Below, piece by piece: positions 1-12,132 of a stretch of DNA of 14,831 bases. Under the pieces are notes generated by a model, which made no database searches, was not told the origin of the DNA, and saw only the letters and a list, made by a program, of their open reading frames with translations. Position 1 is the first letter of the stretch, and every line of letters begins with the position of its first letter. This DNA comes from Thermoanaerobaculia bacterium (lineage in GTDB: Bacteria > Acidobacteriota > Thermoanaerobaculia > UBA5066): positions 1 to 14,831 of the forward strand of contig CAWFJJ010000026.1 of the NCBI GenBank assembly GCA_963816185.1, given 5' to 3'. The translations under genes and the position numbers were made by a program.

Positions 1-1136
1 GCGTGGCCCAGCCGTGGGCGGGTAAGCGCTGGGGGAGCTTCTTCTGGCCCCGTATCGGAAACGAGGTCGTGGTGACTTTCGAGGAGGGCGATCCGGACCG
101 GCCGCTGATCGTCGGAAGCGTCTACAACTTCGACAACATGCCGCCGTTTATCCTGCCTCTGAAGAAACAATATGCCGGCGTCAAATCGGCGAGCGTACGG
201 GGGCTGGCCCACGAGAACTTCAACGGCTTCGTATTCGTCGACGAGAAGGGGCGCGAGCACCTGGAAATGCACTCCGAGCGGAACATGACCTTCAACACGG
301 AATTCGACAAGTCGTTCGCGGCCGGCCGCCACAAGGGCGAACGCGTCGCGAGCGCTTCGGTGCTCACGGTCGGTAACATCCTGCCTGGGGGCGGCGGCAG
401 CGGAGGCGGCCCCTGGGGGAAGCCGACTCCGCAAGGGATCGGCGGCCTCAACTCGATGATGGTGTACGGCGAGAACCTGCAGTTCGCCACCGGCCTCAAC
501 CACCAACTCGCCCTCGGCAGCAACGTGCAGGTTTGCATCAACCCCGCCGGCCTGGCCGCGGGCGTCCCAGGCTTCGTCGCTCCGCCAGAGGTGTCAGGTC
601 TCTTGGGAAGCGGCCTCGGTGGCAACATGCAATTCACCATCGGCACGAGCGCGAGCTTCGTGCTCGGTCGATCCTTCGACATCAACCTCGGGCCTCCGAA
701 GATCGAGGTCACGGGCGCCGACCTTGCGAGCAAACACGTCGCGACCTACATTCTGTGCGGCATTCTGGGCGGCCTGGCGCTTGTCTGGGTCCTTTTTTAC
801 GCGGGCCTCGATGAAGACAATCAGCGCGCGGCCGAGACGCTCACCTTTCAGATCATATTCGATCTTCTGCTGGCGGCGATCATGATCGTCGAAGTGACTC
901 TCGCCAAAGCGGATGCGGCGACCAACATGAGTGCGACAGGCCCGTATAAGAATAAACCGAAAGAGTTGGCAGACGCGGCAGACAGATACAAAAAAATGTT
1001 TGGTGGAGACGCCGGAACAACGCTCGGAGATTGGGCCCAAATTCTGGGCGTGATCGGGGCATGGCTCGCCGCGCTCCCTCTTCCGCTCGTGGCGATCGCC
1101 GCGGAGGAGACCTCTGGCTTTGACAAGAAAGAATGA
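1..1136 (+). CDS. vgrG: VgrG/TssI spike protein, 5'-truncated by the window edge, with a C-terminal hydrophobic (three-helix) extension
   Basis: Reading frame begins at base 3 inside the gp5 OB-fold motif VAQPWAGKRWGSFFWPRIGNEVVVTFEEGDPDRPLIVGSVYN, followed by NFNGFVFVDEKGREHLEMHSERNM (matches the NE.RF.D.KG.EQ..IHA motif of VgrG). Stop TGA 1134-1136. The GTG at 3 is internal, not a real start. Confidence 0.93.
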   Translation, partial: VAQPWAGKRWGSFFWPRIGNEVVVTFEEGDPDRPLIVGSVYNFDNMPPFILPLKKQYAGVKSASVRGLAHENFNGFVFVDEKGREHLEMHSERNMTFNTEFDKSFAAGRHKGERVASASVLTVGNILPGGGGSGGGPWGKPTPQGIGGLNSMMVYGENLQFATGLNHQLALGSNVQVCINPAGLAAGVPGFVAPPEVSGLLGSGLGGNMQFTIGTSASFVLGRSFDINLGPPKIEVTGADLASKHVATYILCGILGGLALVWVLFYAGLDEDNQRAAETLTFQIIFDLLLAAIMIVEVTLAKADAATNMSATGPYKNKPKELADAADRYKKMFGGDAGTTLGDWAQILGVIGAWLAALPLPLVAIAAEETSGFDKKE

Positions 1137-1150
1137 CAGGAGATCACCTC

Positions 1151-1756
1151 ATGCGTTCAGACAGCAGCGAGAATCCCGGTGGCGGCACGGGGGGTGGCCC
1201 GGAGCCGGGTGACCACAACCAAGCCTTCGAGGGTCACTATGGGATCGCGGCGAACCAGGTCGAGCTCGTGGCTCGACCGCCATTGCCGCCTGCCGTTCCC
1301 GGACAGAGTGTCATCAGCATCCTGGCCGCGGGGCTGGGTATCGACGGTCTGGTCGAGATCCGCGGAAGCCAGGGGGTTCGCGTCACGGCCGGGCCGCCGC
1401 CGCTCCTTCCCGCCTCTTCGGACACCACAAATGGCGTCGAGATCCTCACGAGCGAGACGGGGACGCTGACCCTCCAGCGGGGCCTCCTGCCGATCGATCA
1501 GAAGATGGAAATGACGCCGGGAGGGATCACCATCGATGCCGGCGCAGGAAAAGTGACCATCAAGAGCCTCACGCAGATCGAGCTCTCTGTGGCCGAAGGG
1601 CTGGCGAAGCTCACGCTCGGACCCGACGGCGTCACGATTTCGGCTTTGCAGATCAACCTCTCGGCGGAGATAGTTTTGCAACTCCAAGGTGTCATTGCGC
1701 AGCTCACCGGGGAGGCGATGACCCAGATCGGCGGCGGCATCACGATGATCGGGTGA
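1151..1756 (+). CDS. Hypothetical beta-strand-rich protein resembling a detached VgrG/gp5 C-terminal spike tip
   Basis: AGGAG at 1138-1142 precedes ATG 1151; the alternative ATG 1133 overlaps the upstream stop (ATGA). The C-terminal half (GKVTIKSLTQIELSVAEGLAKLTLGPDGVTISALQINLSA...MTQIGGGITMIG) has the short-strand/Gly-turn pattern and terminal motif typical of VgrG C-termini. Confidence 0.7.
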   Translation: MRSDSSENPGGGTGGGPEPGDHNQAFEGHYGIAANQVELVARPPLPPAVPGQSVISILAAGLGIDGLVEIRGSQGVRVTAGPPPLLPASSDTTNGVEILTSETGTLTLQRGLLPIDQKMEMTPGGITIDAGAGKVTIKSLTQIELSVAEGLAKLTLGPDGVTISALQINLSAEIVLQLQGVIAQLTGEAMTQIGGGITMIG

Positions 1757-1762
1757 CAGGCG

Positions 1763-2413
1763 ATGGTGCAGGCTACATTGGCGAAGGTTAAGGCCACGAT
1801 TGCAGTCGAGGTCTGTAAGAACTTCAACCTCAAAGAGGAGGCCCGGCCCTTGCTTCGCGACAGGCAGTCACCTCGCGAGTTTCTGGAGGCCCTCCTCGCG
1901 AACAAGAAGTACGCGCCGGCAGTCGATTTTCTGGCTCACGCGCTGCCGCCCCGCGAGGCGATCTGGTGGGGTTGCCTTTGCGTGCAGAAGGTCATCGGTT
2001 CGAAGCTCTCCCCCGCCGAGGCGGCCGCGTGCAAGGCGGCAGTGGCCTGGGTGCTCGACCCTACGGAGGAGAACCGACAGGCGGCGAAGGCTCCAGCCGA
2101 AGCAGCGAAGCTGAGCACGCCTGCGGGAGGTCTCGCCATGGCTGCGACCTGGACCGGCGGCAGCCTCGCGCCCCCCATGAGCAATTCCAACCCGAAGGTC
2201 CCTCCGCCTCCGCCCGTGCCGCCCGGCCCCTTCGTCCCGGCCAAAGTGGTCGCGGGCGCCATCCTGCTCGCGTCGGTCAAAGGGGATCCGGCCCGGATCG
2301 CAGACACCCAGCGTTCGTTCGTGGAGCTGGGAATCGGCGTGGCGGAAGGACGCTTCGTCTGGCCGGACGTACCGAAGAGAAGAACCTCCGGTTCCTGGTC
2401 CAAGGTGTCCTGA
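1763..2413 (+). CDS. DUF6931-like protein (T6SS vgrG/PAAR-associated)
   Basis: Motifs AVDFLAHALPPREAIWWGCLC, AAVAWVLDPTEENRQAA and AMAATWTGGSLAP recalled for DUF6931; position between a VgrG-type tip and a PAAR gene fits. Confidence 0.8.
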   Translation: MVQATLAKVKATIAVEVCKNFNLKEEARPLLRDRQSPREFLEALLANKKYAPAVDFLAHALPPREAIWWGCLCVQKVIGSKLSPAEAAACKAAVAWVLDPTEENRQAAKAPAEAAKLSTPAGGLAMAATWTGGSLAPPMSNSNPKVPPPPPVPPGPFVPAKVVAGAILLASVKGDPARIADTQRSFVELGIGVAEGRFVWPDVPKRRTSGSWSKVS

Positions 2414-2424
2414 AGGAGTCGGCT

Positions 2425-2715
2425 ATGCCTCAACCCGCCGCGCGCCTCACCGACATGCACGTCTGCCCGATGATCACCGTCCTGGTGCCGCACGTGGGCG
2501 GGCCCATCGTTGCGCCCGGCTGTCCGAATGTCCTCATCGGTGGCATGCCCGCCGCGTGCCTGGGCGACGTGGCCGTCTGTGTCGGGCCGCCGGACGTCGT
2601 CGTCCTGGGAGCGTTCACGGTTCTGATCGGAGGCCGGCCGGCGGCGCGCATGGGCGACCTGACGGCTCATGGCGGGGTCATCGTTCTCGGGTGCTTCAAC
2701 GTGTTGCTGGGATGA
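2425..2715 (+). CDS. PAAR domain spike-tip protein (96 aa)
   Basis: AAGGAG at 2413-2418, ATG 2425. MPQPAARLTDMHVCP...PHVGGPI...VLIGGMPAACLGD...VLIGGRPAARMGDLTAHGG: three PAAR-type motifs with His/Cys candidate Zn ligands. It is the C-terminal part of the 1966..2715 ORF in the track. Confidence 0.95.
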   Translation: MPQPAARLTDMHVCPMITVLVPHVGGPIVAPGCPNVLIGGMPAACLGDVAVCVGPPDVVVLGAFTVLIGGRPAARMGDLTAHGGVIVLGCFNVLLG

Positions 2716-2731
2716 TGGAGGGGTGCCCGGT

Positions 2732-3790
2732 ATGAGCGCAGCAGAAGGGTCGACGATCCCCTACGAGAAACAGGAGGACCTGCATACCAACCGGATGTGC
2801 GGGGCCGCCGCCCTGAGCATGGTGTACGGCTCCTTCGGCAAGCACATCCCGCAGGCGGAGATCTGGCCGCGGATCTCGAAGCACAATCGTTTCGGCAGCC
2901 TCGCCTCCACGACCTATCTGATGGCCCAGGATGCCCTCAGCCGGGGCTTTTCGACTCTCGCCATTCAAGCCAAGCACCCGTTGCAGGTACTGCGCCTCTG
3001 TCGGGAGAGCGGCATTCGGGCGATCCTGAACCACCGGCTGAAAACCGATTCGGAAGCGGGACACTACACAGTGCTCGTGGACATGGATGCGGACAGCGTG
3101 GTTTTGCACGATCCGTTCCTCGGCCCGTCTCGCCGGCTTGCGCACGGGGACCTCCTCGAGCTCTGGCTGCCTCGTCACGCGAACACGGAGATCACGGGCA
3201 ACGTGCTCATCGCTGTTGCTGCCCAGCCGGCCACCGTGGCTCCCTGCAAACTGTGCGGCACCGTGATTCCGCCAACGGCCGCCTGTCCAGGGTGCGGAAA
3301 GCCTGTCTCCTTGCAGCCCGCCTCGATCCTCGGCTGCACCGGCGACACCTGTCCCGCCCGGATGTGGAACTACATCTGCTGCCCGTTCTGCAACACCACC
3401 TGGAACTTGAGCGCGGAGCGCCAGGAGTCGCAGGCGGCGTCGGGATCCGCGCCGAGCGCCGCGGCGTGGGGTCTGGACCTCGGTACGCTTTTCGCCGAGC
3501 TGGACAAGTACTGTAACCACATCCTGAGCTTCCCTGCAGCGGCAGCAAACCCGGACATCCGGCAACAGCTCGACTTCATCAGTGCCAGCAAGGACCGACT
3601 AAGCCTGGCGCAGTCCGAAGAGCTTGCCCGCCGTAAGATCGACCAGGCGGAGGCCGAGCAGCGCGAGCAAAAATTCAAGCAGGATGAGGAGGCCCTTCTG
3701 AAGAAAAAAGAAGAGATCAATAAGCCGTCCCCGCCCGCGGACGGGAACGCGCTCGGGCAGTCTCTTTTGAAAGATCTCGGGCTGACTTGA
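2732..3790 (+). CDS. C39-like (papain-fold) cysteine peptidase with Cys-rich putative Zn-binding region and charged helical tail
   Basis: GGAGG at 2717-2721, ATG 2732 (the 2669 start would overlap the PAAR gene). IPYEKQ...MCGAAALSMV (Gln, Cys 2798), GHYTVLV (His 3062), VLHDPFLG (Asp 3110) match the C39 catalytic pattern; CKLC, CPGC, CTGDTC, CCPFC follow. Confidence 0.85.
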   Translation: MSAAEGSTIPYEKQEDLHTNRMCGAAALSMVYGSFGKHIPQAEIWPRISKHNRFGSLASTTYLMAQDALSRGFSTLAIQAKHPLQVLRLCRESGIRAILNHRLKTDSEAGHYTVLVDMDADSVVLHDPFLGPSRRLAHGDLLELWLPRHANTEITGNVLIAVAAQPATVAPCKLCGTVIPPTAACPGCGKPVSLQPASILGCTGDTCPARMWNYICCPFCNTTWNLSAERQESQAASGSAPSAAAWGLDLGTLFAELDKYCNHILSFPAAAANPDIRQQLDFISASKDRLSLAQSEELARRKIDQAEAEQREQKFKQDEEALLKKKEEINKPSPPADGNALGQSLLKDLGLT

Positions 3791-3847: not shown

Positions 3848-5347
3848 CCCGTTCGAGAGGTGCTGATTGGCGCAATACACGCAAACCGGCCGTCGCCTCA
3901 AGGTCACGACGCCTTTGGGCGCAGACGTTCTGCTCCTGACCGGCTTCTCGGGACACGAAGCCATCTCCCGGCCCTTCCTTTTTCAGCTCGAGTGCGTCGC
4001 CACGAACGAGAACGCGAAGAAGGTCGTCTTCGACGCTCTCCTGGGCAAGAAGATCACCGTCGAGATCGCCCTGCCGGGAGGCGCCAAGCGGCATATCAAC
4101 GGATCGTGTCTGAGAGTCGCGCAGGGCGTACGGGACGCCACGTTCACACGATACGTGCTCGACCTCGTCCCGGAGCCTTCCCTCCTGGCCCGCAAAACGC
4201 AGAGCCGGATCTTTCAGCACGTATCGGTCCCCGACATCCTGAAGACGGTACTTCCCGCCCCCCCGCTCGACATCGCCTGGGAGATCCAGGGGCCATTCGA
4301 ACCGCGCGACTATTGCGTGCAGTATCGCGAGTCCGACTTCGCGTTCGCGAGCCGCCTGATGGAGGAAGAGGGAATCTATTACTTCTTCAAGCACAGCGAC
4401 GGCAGCCACAAGATGGTCGTCGCGAACGATCCGGGGAGCCATTCGGATCTTCCGGTCAAGAGCAACCTGATCTTCGAGGCCGTCGTAGGGGGAACCCGCG
4501 AGGAGGACCGCGTCAACGCCTGGGAGAAGGCGCAGGAGCTGCGCTCGAGCAAGGTGACGCTCTGGGACCACTGCTTCGAGCTGCCCCACAAGCACCTGGA
4601 GGTCCAGCCCTCGCCCGAGATCCAGGCCTCGGTCGCAGCCGGGAAGTCGGTCCACAAGCTGAAGCTCGATGCGAACAAGGAACTCGAGCTTTACGACTAC
4701 CCCGGCGCCTACGCGCAGCGTTTCGACGGGATCAACAAGGGAGGTGGCGAGCAGCCGGCGGAGATCAAGAAGATCTTTCAGGACAACAAACGGACCGCCG
4801 ATCTACGCATGCAGGAGCAGGCAGCCGCCAGCCTCCTCGTGCATGCCGCGAGCAACTGCCGCCAGATCGTCTCGGGCCATAAGCTGACGCTCGAGCGCCA
4901 TTACGACGGAGACGGCCCGTGGGTCGTCTACGAGGTCGGCCACACCGCGTCCGAGGCCGCCGACCTGCGGTCCGGCGAAGGCGGGTTCACCTATCAGAAC
5001 CACTTCACCTGCTTTCCGGTCGCTCTGCCCTTCCGCCCGCCTCGCCTGACGCCGGTTCCGACGGTCAGGGGAACACAGACCGCCGTCGTCGTGGGGCCAC
5101 CAGGCGAGGAGATCTTCACGGACAAGTATGGCCGAATCAAGGTGCAGTTTCATTGGGACCGAGAAGGCGAGTACAACTCCGACAGCTCGTGCTGGATCCG
5201 GGTCGCGACGCCCTGGGCCGGCCACCGCTGGGGCGCGATTCACATTCCCCGCATTGGCCAGGAGGTCGTCGTCGACTTCCTCGAAGGAGACATGGACCGG
5301 CCGATCGTCATCGGCGGCCTCTACAACGCAGACTGCATGCCGCCGTA
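3848..5347 (+). repeat. Paralogous vgrG 5' region, copy 1 (copy 2 at about 7847-9336)
   Basis: Collinear similarity from the SD region to the CMPPY codons; for example 4326-4397 and 8317-8388 are 72 nt with one mismatch. Confidence 0.85.
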
Positions 5348-6551
5348 CGAATTGCCGAAGTACCAGACCTACTCCACCATGAAGTCGCGATCGACGAAAG
5401 ATGGCGGCAACCTGGACTTCAACGAGTTCCGCTACGTCGACACGAAGGGCAAAGAGCAGGTGTTCATCCACTCGCAAAAACGGATGGACATACGCGTCAA
5501 GCAGAATATGTATGACACGATCGGCGGCTCGCGCAATACCTGCATCGGTGGCGAGTACGCCGTGACCGTCGGCGGAAGCCACGATCTGCATGTCAAGGGC
5601 GACGTCTTCTTTCGCGGAGACGGAAAAATCGAGGCCTCGACCGGGGGCGCCGTCAGCGTGAACGTCGGCGGCGCATCCAAGTACTACGCAAAGGCCTCAA
5701 ACGAAATCAACGCTCTCTCCACCACGATAGAGTCCATGAAATCCGTCGTCCTCAAGTGCGGCAGCAGCTTCGTCGAGGTGTCCCCGATGGGCGTGACCAT
5801 TCAGGGGCCGCTGGTTCGAATCAACCCGGGCGGTGCGGCGGCGGGGACAGCGGCCTTCGACACGGACGATCCCCTGGACTGCGCGGGGGCCGATACCGGC
5901 GAGCCCGGCTATCTGGATCGTCCGTACCACGGCGGAGGCGGAGGACGCAAGAAGCGGCACTGCGCCGGCTATCACGCCCGCGATGTCACGTACAATCCGA
6001 CCACAAATACTTTCAATTACGGCGGCTCCGGAATCGCCGTGACCGGCAGCCCGGACTTTGCGGACAAGACATTGCAGACTCTCGCTGGCCTCGACGCCAC
6101 GCCGACCGGTCACCAGCTCATCGACAATCTCCAGTCGAACGGACATACGGCCACCATCAAGGAAGCGACTCCCGCGGAGGCGGCTGCCAACGGCGGAGGC
6201 GTCACGACCGGAGTCCAACCGGCGATGTCGAACGGCACCGGATCGGACAGCACGGTCGCGTGGGCTCCGGGAACGAACGCGCAGTACACGGACGAGAACG
6301 GCGTCAACCACACGCAGCCCGACGAAGCGCTGCTCGGCCACGAACTCAACCACGCCGACCACAACGGTCGCGGCGCGAGCTTGAACGGCACCCCCGATCC
6401 GGCGGATGCGACGGGAAACCAGGAGGAGTCCCAGACCATCGGAATCAACGATCACAAGAACGATGCCGTCACCGAGAACAACATCCTGAAAGACATGGGG
6501 GAGGATTGGAGACGGACGGACCATGACAGCAACGCGCACACGAGGCCATGA
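3867..6551 (+). CDS. vgrG: Evolved VgrG with C-terminal HExxH zinc metallopeptidase (M91/NleD-like) effector domain
   Basis: GAGG at 3857-3860, TTG start. Complete VgrG motifs (EAISRPF, SRIFQ, YCVQYRESDFAFASRLMEEEGIYYFF, GTQTAVVVGP, EEIFTDKYGRIKVQFHWDR, PRIGQEVVVDFLEGD). The spike ends near GVTIQGPLVRIN; the extension carries TPTGHQLIDNL, LLGHELNHADH (6339-6353), QEESQTIG and VTENNIL. Confidence 0.95.
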   Translation: MAQYTQTGRRLKVTTPLGADVLLLTGFSGHEAISRPFLFQLECVATNENAKKVVFDALLGKKITVEIALPGGAKRHINGSCLRVAQGVRDATFTRYVLDLVPEPSLLARKTQSRIFQHVSVPDILKTVLPAPPLDIAWEIQGPFEPRDYCVQYRESDFAFASRLMEEEGIYYFFKHSDGSHKMVVANDPGSHSDLPVKSNLIFEAVVGGTREEDRVNAWEKAQELRSSKVTLWDHCFELPHKHLEVQPSPEIQASVAAGKSVHKLKLDANKELELYDYPGAYAQRFDGINKGGGEQPAEIKKIFQDNKRTADLRMQEQAAASLLVHAASNCRQIVSGHKLTLERHYDGDGPWVVYEVGHTASEAADLRSGEGGFTYQNHFTCFPVALPFRPPRLTPVPTVRGTQTAVVVGPPGEEIFTDKYGRIKVQFHWDREGEYNSDSSCWIRVATPWAGHRWGAIHIPRIGQEVVVDFLEGDMDRPIVIGGLYNADCMPPYELPKYQTYSTMKSRSTKDGGNLDFNEFRYVDTKGKEQVFIHSQKRMDIRVKQNMYDTIGGSRNTCIGGEYAVTVGGSHDLHVKGDVFFRGDGKIEASTGGAVSVNVGGASKYYAKASNEINALSTTIESMKSVVLKCGSSFVEVSPMGVTIQGPLVRINPGGAAAGTAAFDTDDPLDCAGADTGEPGYLDRPYHGGGGGRKKRHCAGYHARDVTYNPTTNTFNYGGSGIAVTGSPDFADKTLQTLAGLDATPTGHQLIDNLQSNGHTATIKEATPAEAAANGGGVTTGVQPAMSNGTGSDSTVAWAPGTNAQYTDENGVNHTQPDEALLGHELNHADHNGRGASLNGTPDPADATGNQEESQTIGINDHKNDAVTENNILKDMGEDWRRTDHDSNAHTRP

Positions 6552-7224
6552 GCGGGCAGCACGCTTTCTCGCCGTCTGCCTGCCGATCTTGTGCGGCCCC
6601 TTTTGGGGGAGGGAGATGAACGTTATGGCTGAAACGTCCACGAGAGCCGTGGAGATGCAGGTTTCGGAAAAGCGCCGGGACGCGACGTCGCTCCAGCTCG
6701 AATATCGCGTCGCGAACGGCACCGCGGAGCCGATCTATCTATTGGACCGCCCGTCCCAAGACGTTCACGGCGGCGGAATGGTGATCGTCGAGAATTTCGC
6801 CAGCGTTCTGTTCGCCGCACCCGACGCCGTTCGGATCGTACGTGGCATCTTGCCGCTCCCGCTCGATCGCAACGTCGCGAGGCGTGCGCCGACTTTTCTC
6901 ACCAAGGTCGAGGCCGGTCAAGCGGCAGTCCGCTCCCTGCAGATCGCTCTGCCTCTGGTCGAGCGGCGCTCCTATTTCAGCGACGATGAAAAGCCGACCG
7001 GAGTGAAAAAACTGGTCTCCAAGGTGCGGTTCGAGCTCGCTTACACGGAGCTACGGCCGGGAATGAAGATCGGCCAACGGACCCTTGCCTCGGGGCCCGA
7101 GGCGCTTCTCGAAGGACGCTGGGAACGTCCCTATCAGCGCGTCCTCACCTTCACCTTCACCATTGCTCCGACCGAGGTCATGCTGCACAGCGATCCCTTC
7201 GAACGGGCCTCGCTGATCCAATAG
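6523..7224 (+). CDS. Hypothetical protein, candidate immunity protein for the VgrG-fused metallopeptidase
   Basis: Fills the gap between vgrG and the PAAR gene. Start uncertain: ATG 6523 (overlaps vgrG 3' end, adds a basic+hydrophobic leader) or ATG 6625 (after GGAGGGAG at 6608-6615). Immunity role is inferred from position only. Confidence 0.7.
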   Translation: MTATRTRGHERAARFLAVCLPILCGPFWGREMNVMAETSTRAVEMQVSEKRRDATSLQLEYRVANGTAEPIYLLDRPSQDVHGGGMVIVENFASVLFAAPDAVRIVRGILPLPLDRNVARRAPTFLTKVEAGQAAVRSLQIALPLVERRSYFSDDEKPTGVKKLVSKVRFELAYTELRPGMKIGQRTLASGPEALLEGRWERPYQRVLTFTFTIAPTEVMLHSDPFERASLIQ

Positions 7225-7233
7225 GAGACGGCG

Positions 7234-7782
7234 ATGCCACAAGGTCCCGCAGCCCGTCTCACCGATCCCGTCGTGCATCCGACGCCGCCAGTCCTCACGG
7301 GCGGCCCCCCTGCCCTGACGGTTCAAATTGCGAACATGCCGGCGTGGAAGGGAGTCCCCCTCGCGGCAGGTGCCGGGCTGGCGCCGGCGCAGGCTTCGGC
7401 CCAGGCGACGCTCCAGACCCTGGAAACCGCAGCGCTGATCGCGGAAGCTGCCGCAGTCGCTGCCGCCGGCACGCCCGGCGCCCCGGCCGCGATCGCCCTC
7501 GCGACGGCCGCTCGGGTCGCCGCCGAACTTGCGAAGTCGTCCACGGCGGCTTCGATGGGCGCCTCCATCACCGCGATGGCGGCCGCGGGTGGCGCGAGCG
7601 TCCACGCCTGCGCCATGCCGTGGCCCATCCCTCCGCACGGGCCGGGCGTCGTCGTCGACGGCTCGGCAACGGTCTCGATCGAGAACGCGCCCGCGTGCCG
7701 AATGGGGGACACAATCGTCGAGGCGATCGGCCCGCCCAACAAGATCGTCACGGGCTGCTTGACGGTCATCGTTGGCGGCTGA
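7234..7782 (+). CDS. PAAR domain protein with internal Ala-rich insertion
   Basis: AGGAG upstream; MPQGPAARLTDPVVH, VQIANMPAWK, VHAC...PPHGPG, VSIENAPACRMGD, GCLTVIVGG are PAAR motifs; about 80 Ala-rich residues lie between the second motif and VHAC. Confidence 0.9.
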   Translation: MPQGPAARLTDPVVHPTPPVLTGGPPALTVQIANMPAWKGVPLAAGAGLAPAQASAQATLQTLETAALIAEAAAVAAAGTPGAPAAIALATAARVAAELAKSSTAASMGASITAMAAAGGASVHACAMPWPIPPHGPGVVVDGSATVSIENAPACRMGDTIVEAIGPPNKIVTGCLTVIVGG

Positions 7783-7866: not shown

Positions 7867-9336
7867 ATGCCCTACACGCAAGCCGGCCGCCGACTCCAGG
7901 TCACGACGCCGTTGGGTGGCGACGTTTTGCTCCTGAACGGGTTTTCGGGACACGAGGCGATCTCCCGACCCTTCCTTTTTCAGCTCGAGTGCGTCGCCGA
8001 GAATGAGAACGCGAAGAAAGTCCTCTTCGACTCTCTCCTAGGCCAGAAGATCACGGTCAGAATCTCCCTGCCGGGAGACAAAGAGCGCTTCCTCAACGGA
8101 ATCTGCGCCAGGGTCGCGCAGGGGGCGCGTGACGCAACGTTCACGCGACATCTGCTCGACCTGGTGCCGGAGTTTCTTCTGCTGTCCCAAAAAACGCAGA
8201 GCCGCATCTTTCAGCACATTTCAGTTCCCGACATCCTGAAGAAGGTCCTTACCGGCCTCGACGTCACCTGGGAGATCCAGGGATCATTTCAGCCACGTGA
8301 CTACTGCGTCCAGTACCGCGAGTCCGACTTCGCGTTCGCGAGCCGCCTGATGGAAGAAGAGGGAATCTATTACTTCTTCAAGCACAGCAAGGGCAGCCAC
8401 ACGATGGTCGTCGCGAATACGCCGGGCAGCCATTCGGACATCTCTCCGGGCCCGAGCAATCTGATCTTCGAGACCGTCGGGGGGGGAACCCGTGAAGAGG
8501 ACCGAGTCAATGCCTGGGAGAAGGCGCAGGAGCTGCGCTCGAGCAAAGTGATCCTCTGGGATCACTGCTTCGAGCTGCCTCACAAGCCGCTGGAAGGCCA
8601 ATCTTCGATCCAGGGCGCGGTCGCCGCGGGGAAGTCGAGCCACAAGCTGAAGCTCGGGGCGAACGCGAAACTCGAGCTGTACGACTTCCCCGGCGCATTT
8701 GCCCAGCGCTTCGACGGAATCCAGCCCGGCGGCGGAGATCGTCCGGCGGACATCCAGAAAATCTTCCAGGACAATGCGCGGACCGCCGAGCTTCGCATGC
8801 AGGAGCGGGCGGCTGCCAGCGTCCTCGTGCATGCCGCGAGCAACTGCCGCCAGATCGTGTCGGGTTTCAAGTTCACACTCGAGCGCCATTTCGACGGGGA
8901 CGGCCCGTGGGTGGTCTACCAGGTCGGGCACACCTGCTCGGAAGCCGCCGACGTGCGCTCCGGCGGAGGCGAGTTCAGCTACCAGAACCACTTCACCTGT
9001 TTCCCGGTCGCCTTGCCCTTCCGCCCGCCGCGCTCGACGCCCATCCCTACCGTGAGGGGGACTCAGACAGCGGTCGTCGTCGGGCCCGCTGGCGAGGAGA
9101 TCTTCACGGACAAGTACTCGCGCATCAAGGTGCAGTTCCATTGGGACCGGGACGGCAAGAAGAACAGTGACAGCTCTTGCTGGGTCCGGGTCGCGACATC
9201 GTGGGCCGGCACGCAATGGGGAGCGATCCACATTCCCCGCATCGGGCAGGAGGTCGTCGTCGACTTCCTCGAGGGCGACATGGACCAGCCGATCGTCATC
9301 GGCAGCGTCTACAACGCCGAGTGCATGCCGCCGTAC
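7847..9336 (+). repeat. Paralogous vgrG 5' region, copy 2
   Basis: As for copy 1; similarity falls sharply after CMPPY. Confidence 0.85.
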
Positions 9337-10035
9337 AGTCTGCCGGCGAACAAGACGCAGAGCGGCATCAAAAGCCGCAGCAGCCTCGGTGGCACCCCCC
9401 CCAACTACAACGAGATCCGGTTCGAGGACAAGAAGGGGCGCGAGCAGCTCCTCATCCACGCCGAGAAGAACCAGGACATCGAGGTCGAGAACGACGAGAC
9501 ACACTGGGTGGGGCACGACCGGTCCAAGACGGTCGACCATGACGAGACGACGCACGTCAAGCACGACCGCACGGAGACGGTCGACAACAACGAGACGATC
9601 ACGATCCACGCCAACCGAACGGAGACAGTGGACAAGAACGAGACCATCTCGATCAACGAGAACCGGACCGAAACCGTCATGAAGGACGAATCGATCTCGG
9701 TCGGGGGCGGCCGCTCGACGGCCGTCGGGAAGGACGAGTCGGTGTCCGTCGGGGGCAGCGTTTCCACGGCGATCGGGAAGGACGAGTCGATCTCGATCAG
9801 CGGCCGTTCGGCTGTCGACGTCGGCAAGGACCAGGAGATCCAGGTCGGCAAGAAGTTCAGCCTCGTCGCGGGAGACCAGATCCAGCTCGAGACAGGCAAC
9901 GCGAGCATCACCATGAAGAAGGATGGGACGATCACGATCAAGGGGAAGGACATCAAGATCTCGGGAAGCGGGAAGATCACCATCAAGGCCGACTCGGACG
10001 TCGTCATGAAGGGCTCGAAGATCTCGCAGAACTGA
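7867..10035 (+). CDS. vgrG: Canonical VgrG/TssI spike protein (722 aa)
   Basis: GGAGG SD, ATG start; all VgrG motifs, NYNEIRFEDKKGREQLLIHAEKNQD, gp5-type 8-residue beta-helix repeats, and the terminus GNASITMKKDGTITIKG...MKGSKISQN; no effector extension. Confidence 0.97.
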   Translation: MPYTQAGRRLQVTTPLGGDVLLLNGFSGHEAISRPFLFQLECVAENENAKKVLFDSLLGQKITVRISLPGDKERFLNGICARVAQGARDATFTRHLLDLVPEFLLLSQKTQSRIFQHISVPDILKKVLTGLDVTWEIQGSFQPRDYCVQYRESDFAFASRLMEEEGIYYFFKHSKGSHTMVVANTPGSHSDISPGPSNLIFETVGGGTREEDRVNAWEKAQELRSSKVILWDHCFELPHKPLEGQSSIQGAVAAGKSSHKLKLGANAKLELYDFPGAFAQRFDGIQPGGGDRPADIQKIFQDNARTAELRMQERAAASVLVHAASNCRQIVSGFKFTLERHFDGDGPWVVYQVGHTCSEAADVRSGGGEFSYQNHFTCFPVALPFRPPRSTPIPTVRGTQTAVVVGPAGEEIFTDKYSRIKVQFHWDRDGKKNSDSSCWVRVATSWAGTQWGAIHIPRIGQEVVVDFLEGDMDQPIVIGSVYNAECMPPYSLPANKTQSGIKSRSSLGGTPPNYNEIRFEDKKGREQLLIHAEKNQDIEVENDETHWVGHDRSKTVDHDETTHVKHDRTETVDNNETITIHANRTETVDKNETISINENRTETVMKDESISVGGGRSTAVGKDESVSVGGSVSTAIGKDESISISGRSAVDVGKDQEIQVGKKFSLVAGDQIQLETGNASITMKKDGTITIKGKDIKISGSGKITIKADSDVVMKGSKISQN
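9682..9849 (+). repeat. Coding tandem repeat, 48-nt period (gp5 C-terminal beta-helix repeats)
   Basis: AAGGAC recurs at 9682, 9730, 9778 and 9826, encoding KDESISVG/KDESVSVG/KDESISIS/KDQEIQVG. Confidence 0.8.
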
Positions 10036-10048
10036 CGCGAGTACACGG

Positions 10049-11062
10049 ATGCTGCAGCTTCGAAACCAGACGCGATTCGCCGCGATGCTCTTCTCCTCGC
10101 CGGCTCCCGACGGCGTCGAGATGCTGTTCGCGGTCGTCAAGGCCACCTTCACCCTCGGCGCGCGCGTCGAGGAAGCCGAGAAGCAGACGCCAGTCGTCAT
10201 GGCCGACCGCTTTCTCGGCGACCCTCTGAAGACGAGCATCGCCGAGCCCGGCGACGTCTCGCTCGCCAAACCCGGCACCGACGTCCTCCTCTTCGGCCAC
10301 GCCTACGGTCCGGGGGGGCGGCCGACACGGCAGTCGGAGGTCTCCCTCCGTCTCGCCTCGATCGACAAGCGCGTGGCCGTTCTTGGAGACCGACGGTGGG
10401 GCGGCACCATACTGACGCGCATCTCTGCGCCCGAGCCTTTCGAGAAGATGCCTCTCGTCTGGGAGCGGGCGTTCGGGGGGACGGAACCTGTCGGGGGCGA
10501 CCCGCCCCGCTTCGACGGGGAAGGCCGGAACCCGGTCGGGGCGGGCTTCCGCTCACGCATCAGCGGGCGAAGACTCGAGGACGTCGTGCTGCCGAACCTC
10601 GAGGATCCGGCACGGCTCATCTCCTCGCCCGGCGACCGGCCGGCGCCGGCCGGCTTCGGCGCCGTCGCGCCGCACTGGAAGCCGCGCCCGGAGTATGCCG
10701 GGACCTACGACGAGGCCTGGCAGCGAAGTCGGGCGCCGTACCTTCCGAAGGACTTCGACCCGCGATTCCTGCAGGTCGCGCCCGAGGACCAGCAGCTGCC
10801 CGGCTATTTGAGGGGCGGAGAGCCGGTCGAGATCGCCGGCGCGACTCCCTCGGGAGTCCTGCGTTTCACCCTCCCGGCCCGGCGCGTAGACGTTCTCTTT
10901 CGCCTGGATTCCGGCGAGGAGAGGAGGCCCGCGAACCTCGATACGGTGATCCTCCGGCCCGACGAGTCCCGTCTCGTTCTCGTTTGGCGCGCCGCCCTGC
11001 CCTGCGACAAACGGCTCCTGAAGGTCCGTGAAGTGGAGCCGATCGTTGCGAGGGCAGCGTAG
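10049..11062 (+). CDS. DUF2169 family T6SS adaptor/chaperone
   Basis: VVKATF, KPGTDVLLFGHAYGPGG, KRVAVLGDRRW, PEPFEKMPLVWERAFGG, NPVGAGF, LPNLEDP, PAGFG...W.PR..YAGTYDEAW, LPKDFDPRF.Q.AP.DQ, LDTVIL...LVWR: full DUF2169 signature directly after vgrG. Confidence 0.95.
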   Translation: MLQLRNQTRFAAMLFSSPAPDGVEMLFAVVKATFTLGARVEEAEKQTPVVMADRFLGDPLKTSIAEPGDVSLAKPGTDVLLFGHAYGPGGRPTRQSEVSLRLASIDKRVAVLGDRRWGGTILTRISAPEPFEKMPLVWERAFGGTEPVGGDPPRFDGEGRNPVGAGFRSRISGRRLEDVVLPNLEDPARLISSPGDRPAPAGFGAVAPHWKPRPEYAGTYDEAWQRSRAPYLPKDFDPRFLQVAPEDQQLPGYLRGGEPVEIAGATPSGVLRFTLPARRVDVLFRLDSGEERRPANLDTVILRPDESRLVLVWRAALPCDKRLLKVREVEPIVARAA

Positions 11063-11070
11063 GGAAGCGG

Positions 11071-12132
11071 ATGGCCGCGCCCGATGTCGTCGTCGTCCGC
11101 GTCGGAATGGTCACGGCGGTCGGTCTGTCGGCCGCCGAGACGGCCGCCTCGGTGCGATCCGCGACAATGCGCTTCGGCCAGATCGATTGCCTGGACCGTC
11201 GTTTCGAGCCCTTCACCGTTGCGGCCGTCTCCGACGCCGGGCTCCCCGAGTTGTCGCCCGAAGTCGCGAACACGCCCGGCCTGAGCGTTCGTGACGGCCG
11301 CTTGCTCCGGCTTGGCGCGAGGGCCCTGGGTGAATGCGCCGGGATTCACGGCCGCGGATCCGGGAAGCCCCCTCTGGTTCTCGCCCTCCCCGAGTCCGAG
11401 CGCGAGCCTCGCCTCGACGCCGCCCGGTTTCTCGGGCTTCTGGCAGCACAGACGAGAGACGCCTACGACGCTGCAGCGAGTACGACTCTCGCGGCGGGAC
11501 GCGCCGGCGGACTGGTCGCGCTCGGCCACGCCGCATCGCTCGTCCGGTCGGGCCGCTCTAGCTTCGCACTCGCCGGCGGCGTCGACTCGTATGTCGATCC
11601 TGCGACTCTCGGGGTTCTCGACGCTGGGAGACGGGTAAAGTCGGAGAGCAACCTCGACGGCTTCATCCCGGGAGAAGGGGCTGCGTTTCTCCTCCTCGCG
11701 AGTCCGCAGGCCGCGGCTGCCGCGCGTCTCCCCGCGCTCGCCGTCGTTTCCGAGGTCGCGGAGGGCTTCGAGGAAGGCCACCTCGGAAGCAAGAAAGCCT
11801 ACCTCGGCGAAGGGCTGGCGGCGACGATTCAGGCGCTGATTCAGGCGGCGCCGCCGCCGAAGCCTTTCGTGTCGGTGTGGTCCTCTATGAATGGCGAGAG
11901 CCACTGGGGAAGGGAATGGGGCGTGGCTGTCCTGCGCGCGCGCGACGCCTTCGCGGAACCGCACGCCATGAACCACCCGGCAGACTGCTTTGGCGACGCC
12001 GGAGCCGCCTCGGGCGCGCTCCTCGCAGGGCTCGCGAGCCTCGACGCGGCCGGGGGCCCGGCCCTCGTGTACGCCTCGTCCGATCTCGGACCGCGGGCGT
12101 CGCTGTCGATTCTTTCGGTGGGAGGGGACTGA
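11071..12132 (+). CDS. Thiolase-fold (beta-ketoacyl synthase-like, PRK06147-type) T6SS accessory protein
   Basis: GMVTAVGLSAAETAASVRS, LAGGVDSY, DGFIPGEGAAFLLL, MNGESHWGREW, HPADCFGDAGAASG; sits between DUF2169 and DUF4150 genes as is typical. Confidence 0.9.
   Translation: MAAPDVVVVRVGMVTAVGLSAAETAASVRSATMRFGQIDCLDRRFEPFTVAAVSDAGLPELSPEVANTPGLSVRDGRLLRLGARALGECAGIHGRGSGKPPLVLALPESEREPRLDAARFLGLLAAQTRDAYDAAASTTLAAGRAGGLVALGHAASLVRSGRSSFALAGGVDSYVDPATLGVLDAGRRVKSESNLDGFIPGEGAAFLLLASPQAAAAARLPALAVVSEVAEGFEEGHLGSKKAYLGEGLAATIQALIQAAPPPKPFVSVWSSMNGESHWGREWGVAVLRARDAFAEPHAMNHPADCFGDAGAASGALLAGLASLDAAGGPALVYASSDLGPRASLSILSVGGD

Follow-up and report, generated by a model that had tools for sequence, protein, structure and literature searches.

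Can the spike protein VgrG of a type VI secretion system (T6SS) be built in two pieces, with the end that holds PAAR encoded by a gene of its own? In the usual view, each protomer of the VgrG trimer is one chain and PAAR is held by the final strands of these same chains, a view on which effector-loading models are built. The question is raised by a stretch of 14,831 nucleotides (nt; hereafter, the window) from a Thermoanaerobaculia bacterium (GCA_963816185.1; genome G000, 5.09 Mb in 30 contigs), which comprises the first 14,831 bases of contig C26 (CAWFJJ010000026.1). On the + strand of the window, a VgrG fragment (VgrG1) is followed by a small gene (hereafter, the tip gene), a DUF6931 gene, a PAAR gene and a C39-like peptidase gene, and then by two more VgrG sets (Table 1). 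A first-pass annotation, made from the letters of the window, had read VgrG1 and the tip gene as the two pieces of one spike. All elements that it named were found in place, with four corrections, and the C39-like peptidase gene was added as a fifth member of the cassette. We conclude that the cassette probably encodes a specialised VgrG spike that is in two pieces through a natural, conserved gene fission.

The window begins at the contig start, so only the 377 C-terminal codons of VgrG1 are present. They encode an OB fold (Phage_base_V PF04717, amino acids (aa) 1–41, E 1.4e-10) and a shortened beta-prism, for which the Gp5_trimer_C match (PF22178, aa 59–124) reached 31.1 bits against a cut-off of 30.9 and covered profile positions 2–65 of 112 only. 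The match to TIGR03361 spans profile positions 404–509 of 513, and DUF6484 matches in the window were confined to the OB regions of the three VgrGs. Only aa 1–125 of VgrG1 align to solved VgrG1 structures (7q5p from Pseudomonas protegens and 4mtk from Pseudomonas aeruginosa; chain residues 410–537 of ~645). The solved spikes extend ~108 prism residues past the point where this match stops, indicating that the distal prism is missing from VgrG1. VgrG1 has no terminal prism strands of the kind that form the blunt end for PAAR, and the chain finishes in hydrophobic helices; its three hydrophobic segments have Kyte-Doolittle 19-residue maxima of 2.18–2.27. Structure alignment and hydropathy thus agree with the first-pass annotation that VgrG1 lacks the usual terminal strands and ends in such helices.

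The tip gene belongs to a family that has no name. A word-indexed search found at least 200 related proteins of 113–363 aa (E ≤ 0.001), and the best 120 of these 200 are nearly all 158–217 aa long; none of them has a Pfam domain, and they are named only 'hypothetical protein'. A phmmer search of 1.84 billion representative sequences gave 172 matches at E ≤ 0.001, with 97 at ≤ 1e-10 and 18 at ≤ 1e-30. The tip protein itself had no match in Pfam (E ≤ 0.01), NCBIfam or PHROG, and a sequence search of the Protein Data Bank (PDB) with the tip profile returned only chance matches to thioredoxin reductase (E 0.04). Two end types occur in the family, a short one of ~170 aa ending in ...LVQIN and a long one of ~200 aa with ~30 extra residues, ending in ...GGITMIG. 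The window tip has the long end, and closest to it are the tips of one metagenome locus (L109) and of two loci from Planctomycetota metagenome-assembled genomes (L007 and L008).

The end of the tip protein is VgrG-like, as had been noticed earlier. In a profile comparison with nine canonical VgrGs (617–748 aa, all with the complete VgrG domain set), its aa 115–200 cover the final 84 columns down to the same last residue (hhalign 99.5%, E 6.8e-23), and phmmer likewise matched the tip to the final ~80 aa of 617–748-aa VgrGs. The likeness is to the VgrG class that terminates in ...GGITMIG/N. The ends of the two other VgrGs in the window were compared and rejected as relatives (VgrG3, hhalign probability 0.6% and BLASTP E 0.3; VgrG2, BLASTP E 1.9).

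A split of this kind could be produced by an assembly frameshift or a decaying pseudogene, or be bridged by programmed frameshifting or read-through to yield one chain. The window gives some cause for such a suspicion: the tip is read in the −1 frame with respect to VgrG1, an ATGA stands at 1133–1136, and the same genome carries a frameshifted VgrG on contig C25. We profiled the split in two sets of loci. In a set with one genome per species, a scan with the tip alignment gave 35 loci (33 in Acidobacteriota lineages and 2 in Planctomycetota), where none of the 36 tip open reading frames (ORFs) shares an open frame with the VgrG body. A metagenome scan was seeded with a fused protein (P0126), which biases it towards fused forms, and gave 80 loci: 47 split, 5 in one frame and 28 without a tblastn tip match. 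The last are mostly cut contigs, and four of them (L065, L079, L106 and L121) carry a divergent separate tip gene. Counted with the tip profile over the window and these 115 loci, there are 93 tip ORFs. Of these, 88 stand apart from any VgrG, 4 continue the chain of a helix-bearing VgrG and one is the end of an ordinary 712-aa VgrG (L112). The same split junction recurs in genome and metagenome loci from many assemblies.

The junctions themselves are variable. Among 68 distinct ones, the tip frame relative to VgrG is 0, 1 and 2 in 25, 21 and 22 cases, respectively (in the first 25, only a stop separates two ORFs of one frame). Each of the three stop codons occurs, and the first start lies −65 to +121 nt from the stop, mostly 12–30. 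This variation in frames, stops and distances speaks for separate initiation and against a conserved frameshift or read-through site, and the even spread of frames led us to reject programmed recoding as a general mechanism. In the window, the tip ATG is preceded by a Shine-Dalgarno sequence of its own, and no canonical slippery heptamer was read at 1122–1136. Three contigs, one from each of three public runs of a single study that is possibly the source sample of the window, bridge 1124–1160 with zero indels. On the recurrent split, the bridging contigs and the junction frames together we reject an assembly artefact or indel at the junction. The first-pass annotation had named fused homologues with an indel near 1124–1136 as one outcome that would overturn its reading; this outcome was not seen, as only a minority of homologues are fused. 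Taken as a whole, we regard an unreal split as extremely improbable. An A>G difference was seen at 1129 in the contigs of two runs, a strain variant that changes Lys to Arg three codons ahead of the VgrG1 stop.

The relationship between the tip and VgrG1 was revealed by one-piece homologues. Two proteins, P0125 (1021 aa) and P0126 (969 aa), carry Phage_GPD, the OB fold, a partial gp5C match, the helices and the tip on one chain, and the gp5C match of P0126 is partial in the same way as that of VgrG1 (profile 2–65 of 112). The order in both is GGGSGGG, a family-specific 'mid' module, the helices, a second GGGSGGG and the tip domain, with the end ...VQIN. More fused forms came from the representative search (P0161, P0238, P0158, P0154, P0150 and P0148), and a fragment (P0106) from the first search. 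At the locus level, fused forms were found at L045, L058, L059 and L066, with L058 and L059 from different metagenome records; L058, L059 and L066 continue into DUF6931, PAAR and the C39-like gene, and L045, near a contig end, into DUF6931 only. The existence of one-piece versions indicates that the tip is a homologue of the distal end of a single-chain spike. The earlier proposal of a two-piece spike therefore stands in that the PAAR-docking distal end is separately encoded, as the fused homologues and the hhalign result show; the seating of the tip on VgrG1 is the part that we infer.

We also traced the fused state on a quick maximum-likelihood IQ-TREE phylogeny of 82 tip domains, which was restricted to non-identical tip matches over 140 or more profile positions and did not include L112. 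With 13 rows fused, the tree requires 5 changes of state, and at least 2 of these are forced by well-supported branches. Fusion and fission have thus happened repeatedly, and this interconversion is what one would expect of two forms that serve one function and build one structure.

In a VgrG trimer, PAAR sits on the last beta-strands. A complex model of three tip chains (aa 20–201) with the window PAAR gave an ipSAE of 0.78, and the best of three controls gave 0.07; solved complexes came up to the mark in 58 of 80 cases and mismatched pairs in 2 of 110. The runs agreed in at least 95% of contacts, the predicted local distance difference test (pLDDT) score was 91 for PAAR and 83–86 for the tip chains, and the interface was formed by tip residues 195–201 of all three copies. 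The model predicts that the tip is a trimer whose end binds PAAR, in line with the trimeric, PAAR-carrying tip proposed earlier, and it passed its controls; as VgrG-PAAR complexes have been solved, it may have done so through resemblance to them and not as independent evidence.

The tip–PAAR model would fit equally well a stand-in role, which the first-pass annotation had not raised. TvpC is a small trimer of an OB fold plus a prism that mimics VgrG: it keeps PAAR in a pre-complex until VgrG1 takes its place. Such mimics are Serratia TvpC (DUF3540) and PA0096 (DUF6484), small trimers with a PAAR-binding prism end, both exchanged for VgrG1 (PMC13373197). By analogy, the tip could be a VgrG-mimicking trimer that holds PAAR in a cytoplasmic pre-complex, with DUF6931 as the chaperone, until it is swapped for a real VgrG. 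The cassette does include an uncharacterised accessory in DUF6931, and the tip resembles TvpC (PMC13373197) in being small and free-standing, in its predicted trimeric state, in a prism end for PAAR and in a gene that adjoins those of VgrG and PAAR. The tip differs from TvpC in having no OB fold and no match to DUF6484, Phage_base_V or any other Pfam family, in its tipless partner (TvpC is swapped for a tip-bearing VgrG), in having fused versions and in having no DUF2169 partner (PMC13373197). VgrG1 is without canonical terminal strands that could take over PAAR, and a disposable decoy is hard to reconcile with one-piece homologues that bear the tip covalently at the VgrG end. DUF2169/TvpA is absent from the cassette (1–3790), and the DUF2169 gene of the window (10049–11062) belongs to the VgrG3 set. 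We consider this stand-in role unlikely.

The genes around the tip also tie it to VgrG1. When the window proteins were searched by tblastn against the 35 genome loci, a VgrG body was found upstream in 34, the 'mid' module in 34, DUF6931 in 34, PAAR in 31 and the C39-like gene in 34. The gene order is unvarying in the genome loci and recurs in the metagenome loci with contigs long enough, a pattern that is far beyond chance. DUF6931 matches PF22011, a family of unknown function, over profile positions 1–145 of 145 (144.7 bits, cut-off 27); it had no PHROG match, no usable match in a protein atlas and only one passing mention in the literature searched. The PAAR protein scores 81 bits to PF05488 (cut-off 27). 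That these two genes come next after the tip gene had been annotated correctly.

DUF6931 and PAAR accompany ordinary VgrGs as well. In genome G315 (L126, 5870–8832), a one-piece 696-aa VgrG ending in ...GGITMIN is followed by DUF6931 and PAAR inside a T6SS core cluster; this PAAR is 76% identical to the window PAAR over 93 aa, and no match to the C39-like gene was found in 16 kb of G315. At L112 (12062–15140), an ordinary one-piece VgrG with a ...TMIG/N type end precedes DUF6931 and a closely related PAAR. The company of one-piece VgrGs in L112 and G315 shows that DUF6931 tracks the VgrG-end/PAAR type and not the split, and DUF6931 may be an accessory of that pair. On the one example of G315, the C39-like gene goes with the helix-bearing VgrG rather than with DUF6931 and PAAR.

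These ordinary VgrGs raise another explanation, that the tip, DUF6931 and PAAR form a free-standing cap module for other VgrGs (for example VgrG2 or VgrG3 of the window), and that VgrG1 is a membrane-active effector without PAAR. One locus (L016), with no VgrG body detected within 6 kb upstream of the tip, would suit it. The tip lies directly after a helix-bearing VgrG in 34 of the 35 genome loci, the fused forms join it to that VgrG and to no other, the VgrG3 end is unrelated to the tip end, and VgrG3 has a DUF2169 set of its own, all of which make a cap for other VgrGs highly unlikely.

The two-piece spike that we favour would be organised as follows. The first piece, VgrG1, would supply the hub, the OB fold and the shortened beta-prism, followed after the GGGSGGG linker by a family-specific module with a hydrophobic hairpin and a third hydrophobic helix as its core. 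The second piece, the 201-aa tip, would begin with its GGGxGGG linker and fold as a trimer into the distal beta-prism, with the last prism strands corresponding to those of an ordinary VgrG and capped by the neighbouring PAAR. The tip trimer would stack on the truncated VgrG1 prism and complete it, in which case the hydrophobic module would be either an excursion from the spike or a joint in it. The module may be a membrane-active payload, DUF6931 an accessory, and the C39-like peptidase a cargo or a processing factor. Sheath and Hcp genes of a T6SS are present in G000, with the core genes on contig C25, and this T6SS would presumably fire the spike. The first-pass annotation went further and proposed that the helices are a cargo kept at the joint and possibly laid bare as the tip comes off, which we would do no more than infer.

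The hydrophobic module was viewed in an AlphaFold2 (AF2) model of the fused protein P0154. The best-scored part of the model (pLDDT 75–92) comprises the 'mid' module and a long helical hairpin (294–319 and 323–365). Within it, helix 294–319 scores 86–92 and the 'mid' equivalent ~75, the latter mostly without regular secondary structure; the last tip strands score 72–82. In Foldseek, the model matched VgrG1 structures (E 5.8e-8 to 3.2e-6) and 3wit, a VgrG C-terminal region (probability 1.00, TMt 0.57, 46 columns). VIA-align in its wide mode gave only generic helical-hairpin matches (Z 7.6–8.6, a range common for helical models), on which we assign no fold to the helical module, and a Pfam search with the 'mid' module gave no match. 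In the protein atlas, aa 135–377 of VgrG1 were closest to unnamed clusters (best 0.89), with Gp5 families at 0.81, values that serve as leads only. The model suggests that the hydrophobic module is a compact hairpin plus the preceding segment, tethered on both sides by Gly-rich linkers, and a module that loops out of the prism as an insertion would fit it at least as well as an in-line joint.

Several points weigh against the two-piece spike. The docking of the tip on VgrG1 is putative, and the contact that was modelled is that of the tip and PAAR. The N-terminal half of the tip (aa 20–115) has no detectable relatives outside the family. As a monomer the tip is modelled poorly by AF2 (pLDDT 58), as is expected of an intertwined trimer, and its C-terminal residues 172–200 came out as a helix. 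The P0154 monomer is likewise poor outside residues 200–370 and 520–590, and its 'mid' module is not predicted as a beta-prism, so that the joint may have either geometry. The locus counts are not independent, as many loci are near-copies, the second set was seeded with a fused form, and ORFs rather than events were counted. Lastly, the 5' part of VgrG1 is absent from the assembly and the VgrG on C25 is frameshifted, so this copy may not be intact.

We searched the genome for the missing hub. Among its 6 Phage_GPD matches, which are in VgrG2, VgrG3 and four C25 fragments (three in the frameshifted VgrG, and one at ~459 kb with internal stops), there was no orphan hub fragment for VgrG1. In homologues, the gp27-like hub (Phage_GPD) is present, both in the one-piece P0126 and in the split-locus VgrG ORFs of ~800–870 aa. 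The C25 VgrG (C25:460946–464090, L003) has an M91-like C-terminus and is broken into several frames, and its OB-fold region is 97% identical to window 1–147. This repeat probably caused the contig break that cut VgrG1.

GGG-S/T-GGG motifs flank the hydrophobic module on both sides, one in VgrG1 (390–410) and one at the tip N-terminus (1178–1198). On the VgrG side, 64 of 87 distinct VgrG segments have a strict G[GA]GxGGG that starts 99–106 residues past GDPD. It is followed by a linker of variable length and low complexity, and is absent from the six VgrG segments that we read as canonical. Tip homologues begin with Met, ~8 residues and GGGxGGG; among 71 distinct tip N-termini, 56 have the motif in its strict form and 8 in a loose form, and G10, G12, G14, G15 and G16 are invariant in an alignment of 24 sequences.

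The C39-like protein that closes the cassette has matches to PF03412 (30.6 bits, cut-off 22), to PF13529 (C39_2; 24.7 bits, cut-off 24) and to C70. Counting Met at 2732 as residue 1, Q14, C23, H111 and D127 are each conserved in at least 95% of 64 distinct sequences, and by analogy we take them to be the catalytic residues. The middle of the protein contains eight Cys in four CxxC pairs, each at least 95% conserved in the same 64 sequences. No conserved ORF family was found downstream of the gene in 51 loci (the largest occurs in 5 of the 51, in near-copies), and hence there is no obvious cognate immunity gene. The protein could be either a cargo or a processing enzyme.

The C39 family cleaves after Gly-Gly. 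The GGGxGGG motifs in VgrG1 and the tip are no more than suggestive of such a cut by the cassette peptidase. A break-apart spike can be imagined, in which the peptidase cleaves the GGGxGGG motifs and the module, released from between the body and the PAAR-bearing tip, inserts into the target membrane; we see this as an unlikely extension of the two-piece spike. If it were true, the common gene split would achieve at the level of the genes what the distal cut does to the protein, and in the rare one-piece forms that cut would be left to the peptidase.

Spikes of two polypeptides have precedents of other kinds. The Francisella PdpA-VgrG (PDB 6u9e) is a T6SS spike of two polypeptides, one of which is a very small, prism-only VgrG. 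In Francisella the split falls between a hub-like part and the prism, whereas here it falls inside the prism region, after the hydrophobic module. NF041249 (T6SS_TssI_Fran) matches VgrG3 of the window and not the tip, and no relation between the Francisella protein and the tip was found. Phage T4 gp5 is cleaved to gp5* and gp5C, which stay together in the spike, and gp5.4 is a PAAR-like cap. The present system resembles it in having two chains per protomer, a distal piece (a beta-helix in gp5) with a sharp cap and an effector-like domain at the junction, and differs in that the two chains of gp5 arise by proteolysis of one product with a lysozyme at the junction, and those here from two genes with hydrophobic helices at the junction.

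Specialised ('evolved') VgrGs, such as VgrG2 of the window with its Peptidase_M91-like domain, likewise carry an extra module on the chain of hub, OB fold and gp5-like prism and have PAAR and accessory genes downstream. In those VgrGs the module follows a complete prism, whereas the VgrG1 module precedes the distal prism, which is usually a separate gene with the PAAR site. Burkholderia thailandensis VgrG5, which has extra sequence beyond the core, is needed for a membrane event, host cell-cell fusion, and works with an extension-less PAAR, TagD5 (PMC9635284). The possible likeness lies in an extra module on VgrG together with a minimal PAAR, and VgrG5 is a single chain (PMC9635284). In prePAAR effectors, transmembrane helices at the T6SS spike tip are thought to help in crossing or entering the target membrane (PMC7773334). 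Those helices are on the PAAR effector and are there described as shielded by DUF1795 Eag chaperones (PMC7773334), whereas here they are on VgrG and PAAR is minimal. A scan of the cassette genes found none of the Eag type.

The first-pass annotation knew of no description of this architecture, and our literature searches also found none of a separately encoded, PAAR-binding distal prism behind a hydrophobic module; supplements were beyond the reach of these searches, including the Tvp tables of PMC13373197 on Acidobacteriota and Planctomycetota, which may hold related loci. A two-gene VgrG spike with a detached tip is apparently new to the literature.

The rest of the window holds the two other VgrG sets. 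The set at 3867–7782 contains VgrG2 (894 aa) with a Peptidase_M91/XopG-like C-terminal domain, followed by an unannotatable 233-aa ORF (6523–7224) and a 182-aa protein, the final 50 residues of which match the PAAR motif over its first half with a score under the Pfam cut-off. The set at 7867–12132 contains VgrG3 (722 aa), a DUF2169 gene (10049–11062) and a gene for a 353-aa protein (11071–12132) with a ketoacyl-synthase N-terminal-like stretch. The VgrG3 set resembles the pair of DUF2169 and a PRK06147-type protein in Class II Tvp systems (PMC13373197).

Table 1 Features of the split VgrG cassette in the window (positions in nt; aa numbers of VgrG1 refer to the fragment present)
Feature	Position	Strand	Description and basis
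VgrG1	3..1136	+	C-terminal 377 codons; Pfam Phage_base_V and Gp5_trimer_C; TGA stop at 1134–1136
First GGGSGGG motif	390..410	+	Read from the sequence; homology to the canonical VgrG prism ends here
'Mid' module, family-specific, aa ~140–240	420..722	+	Between the Gly linker and the hydrophobic helices; tblastn
Hydrophobic helix 1, aa 245–270	735..812	+	Kyte-Doolittle 19-residue maximum 2.24; helix 294–319 in the P0154 model
Hydrophobic/amphipathic helix 2, aa 276–306	828..920	+	Kyte-Doolittle 19-residue maximum 2.18; helix 323–365 in the P0154 model; pairs with helix 1 as a hairpin
Hydrophobic helix 3, aa 345–368	1035..1106	+	Kyte-Doolittle 19-residue maximum 2.27; final element ahead of the VgrG1 stop
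Shine-Dalgarno-like AGGAG	1138..1142	+	8 nt upstream of the tip ATG; read from the sequence
Tip protein, 201 aa, unnamed family	1151..1756	+	Homologues, fused forms, trimer model
Second Gly motif GGGTGGG, tip aa 10–16	1178..1198	+	Alignment of tip N-termini
VgrG-terminus-like region, tip aa 115–201	1493..1753	+	hhalign; aa 195–201 (nt 1733–1753) touch PAAR in the model
DUF6931 protein, 216 aa	1763..2413	+	PF22011, E 2.7e-42; presumed spike/PAAR accessory
PAAR protein, 96 aa, without extension	2425..2715	+	PF05488, E 7.5e-23
C39-like cysteine peptidase with Cys-rich middle	2732..3790	+	Start at 2732 likely, 2669 possible; Peptidase_C39; closes the cassette

The distribution of the cassette was patchy among the genomes searched. 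The tip family was found in 1 of 41, that is, in G000 only and in none of its 40 relatives, and of 301 genomes from the phylum only G000 and one other had DUF6931 above the cut-off. The closest cassettes are from Acidobacteriota and Planctomycetota. From such sequence comparisons there are hints that the cassette may have been horizontally acquired.

With this family, the rule that VgrG is a single chain would be broken by a widespread environmental group that comprises, at 90% identity, no fewer than 200 clusters, the majority from Acidobacteriota of soil and some from Planctomycetota, in which the PAAR platform is a separate protein of 170–200 aa. If the two-piece reading is true, these bacteria would have a natural modular spike that is assembled non-covalently, which would be useful for the engineering of spike cargo. 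They would also have a new T6SS route for membrane-active helices, carried on VgrG instead of on PAAR effectors that Eag chaperones attend. Three families without a name or a characterised member would then gain a context and roles that can be tested: that of the tip, DUF6931, and the C39-like peptidases with four CxxC pairs.

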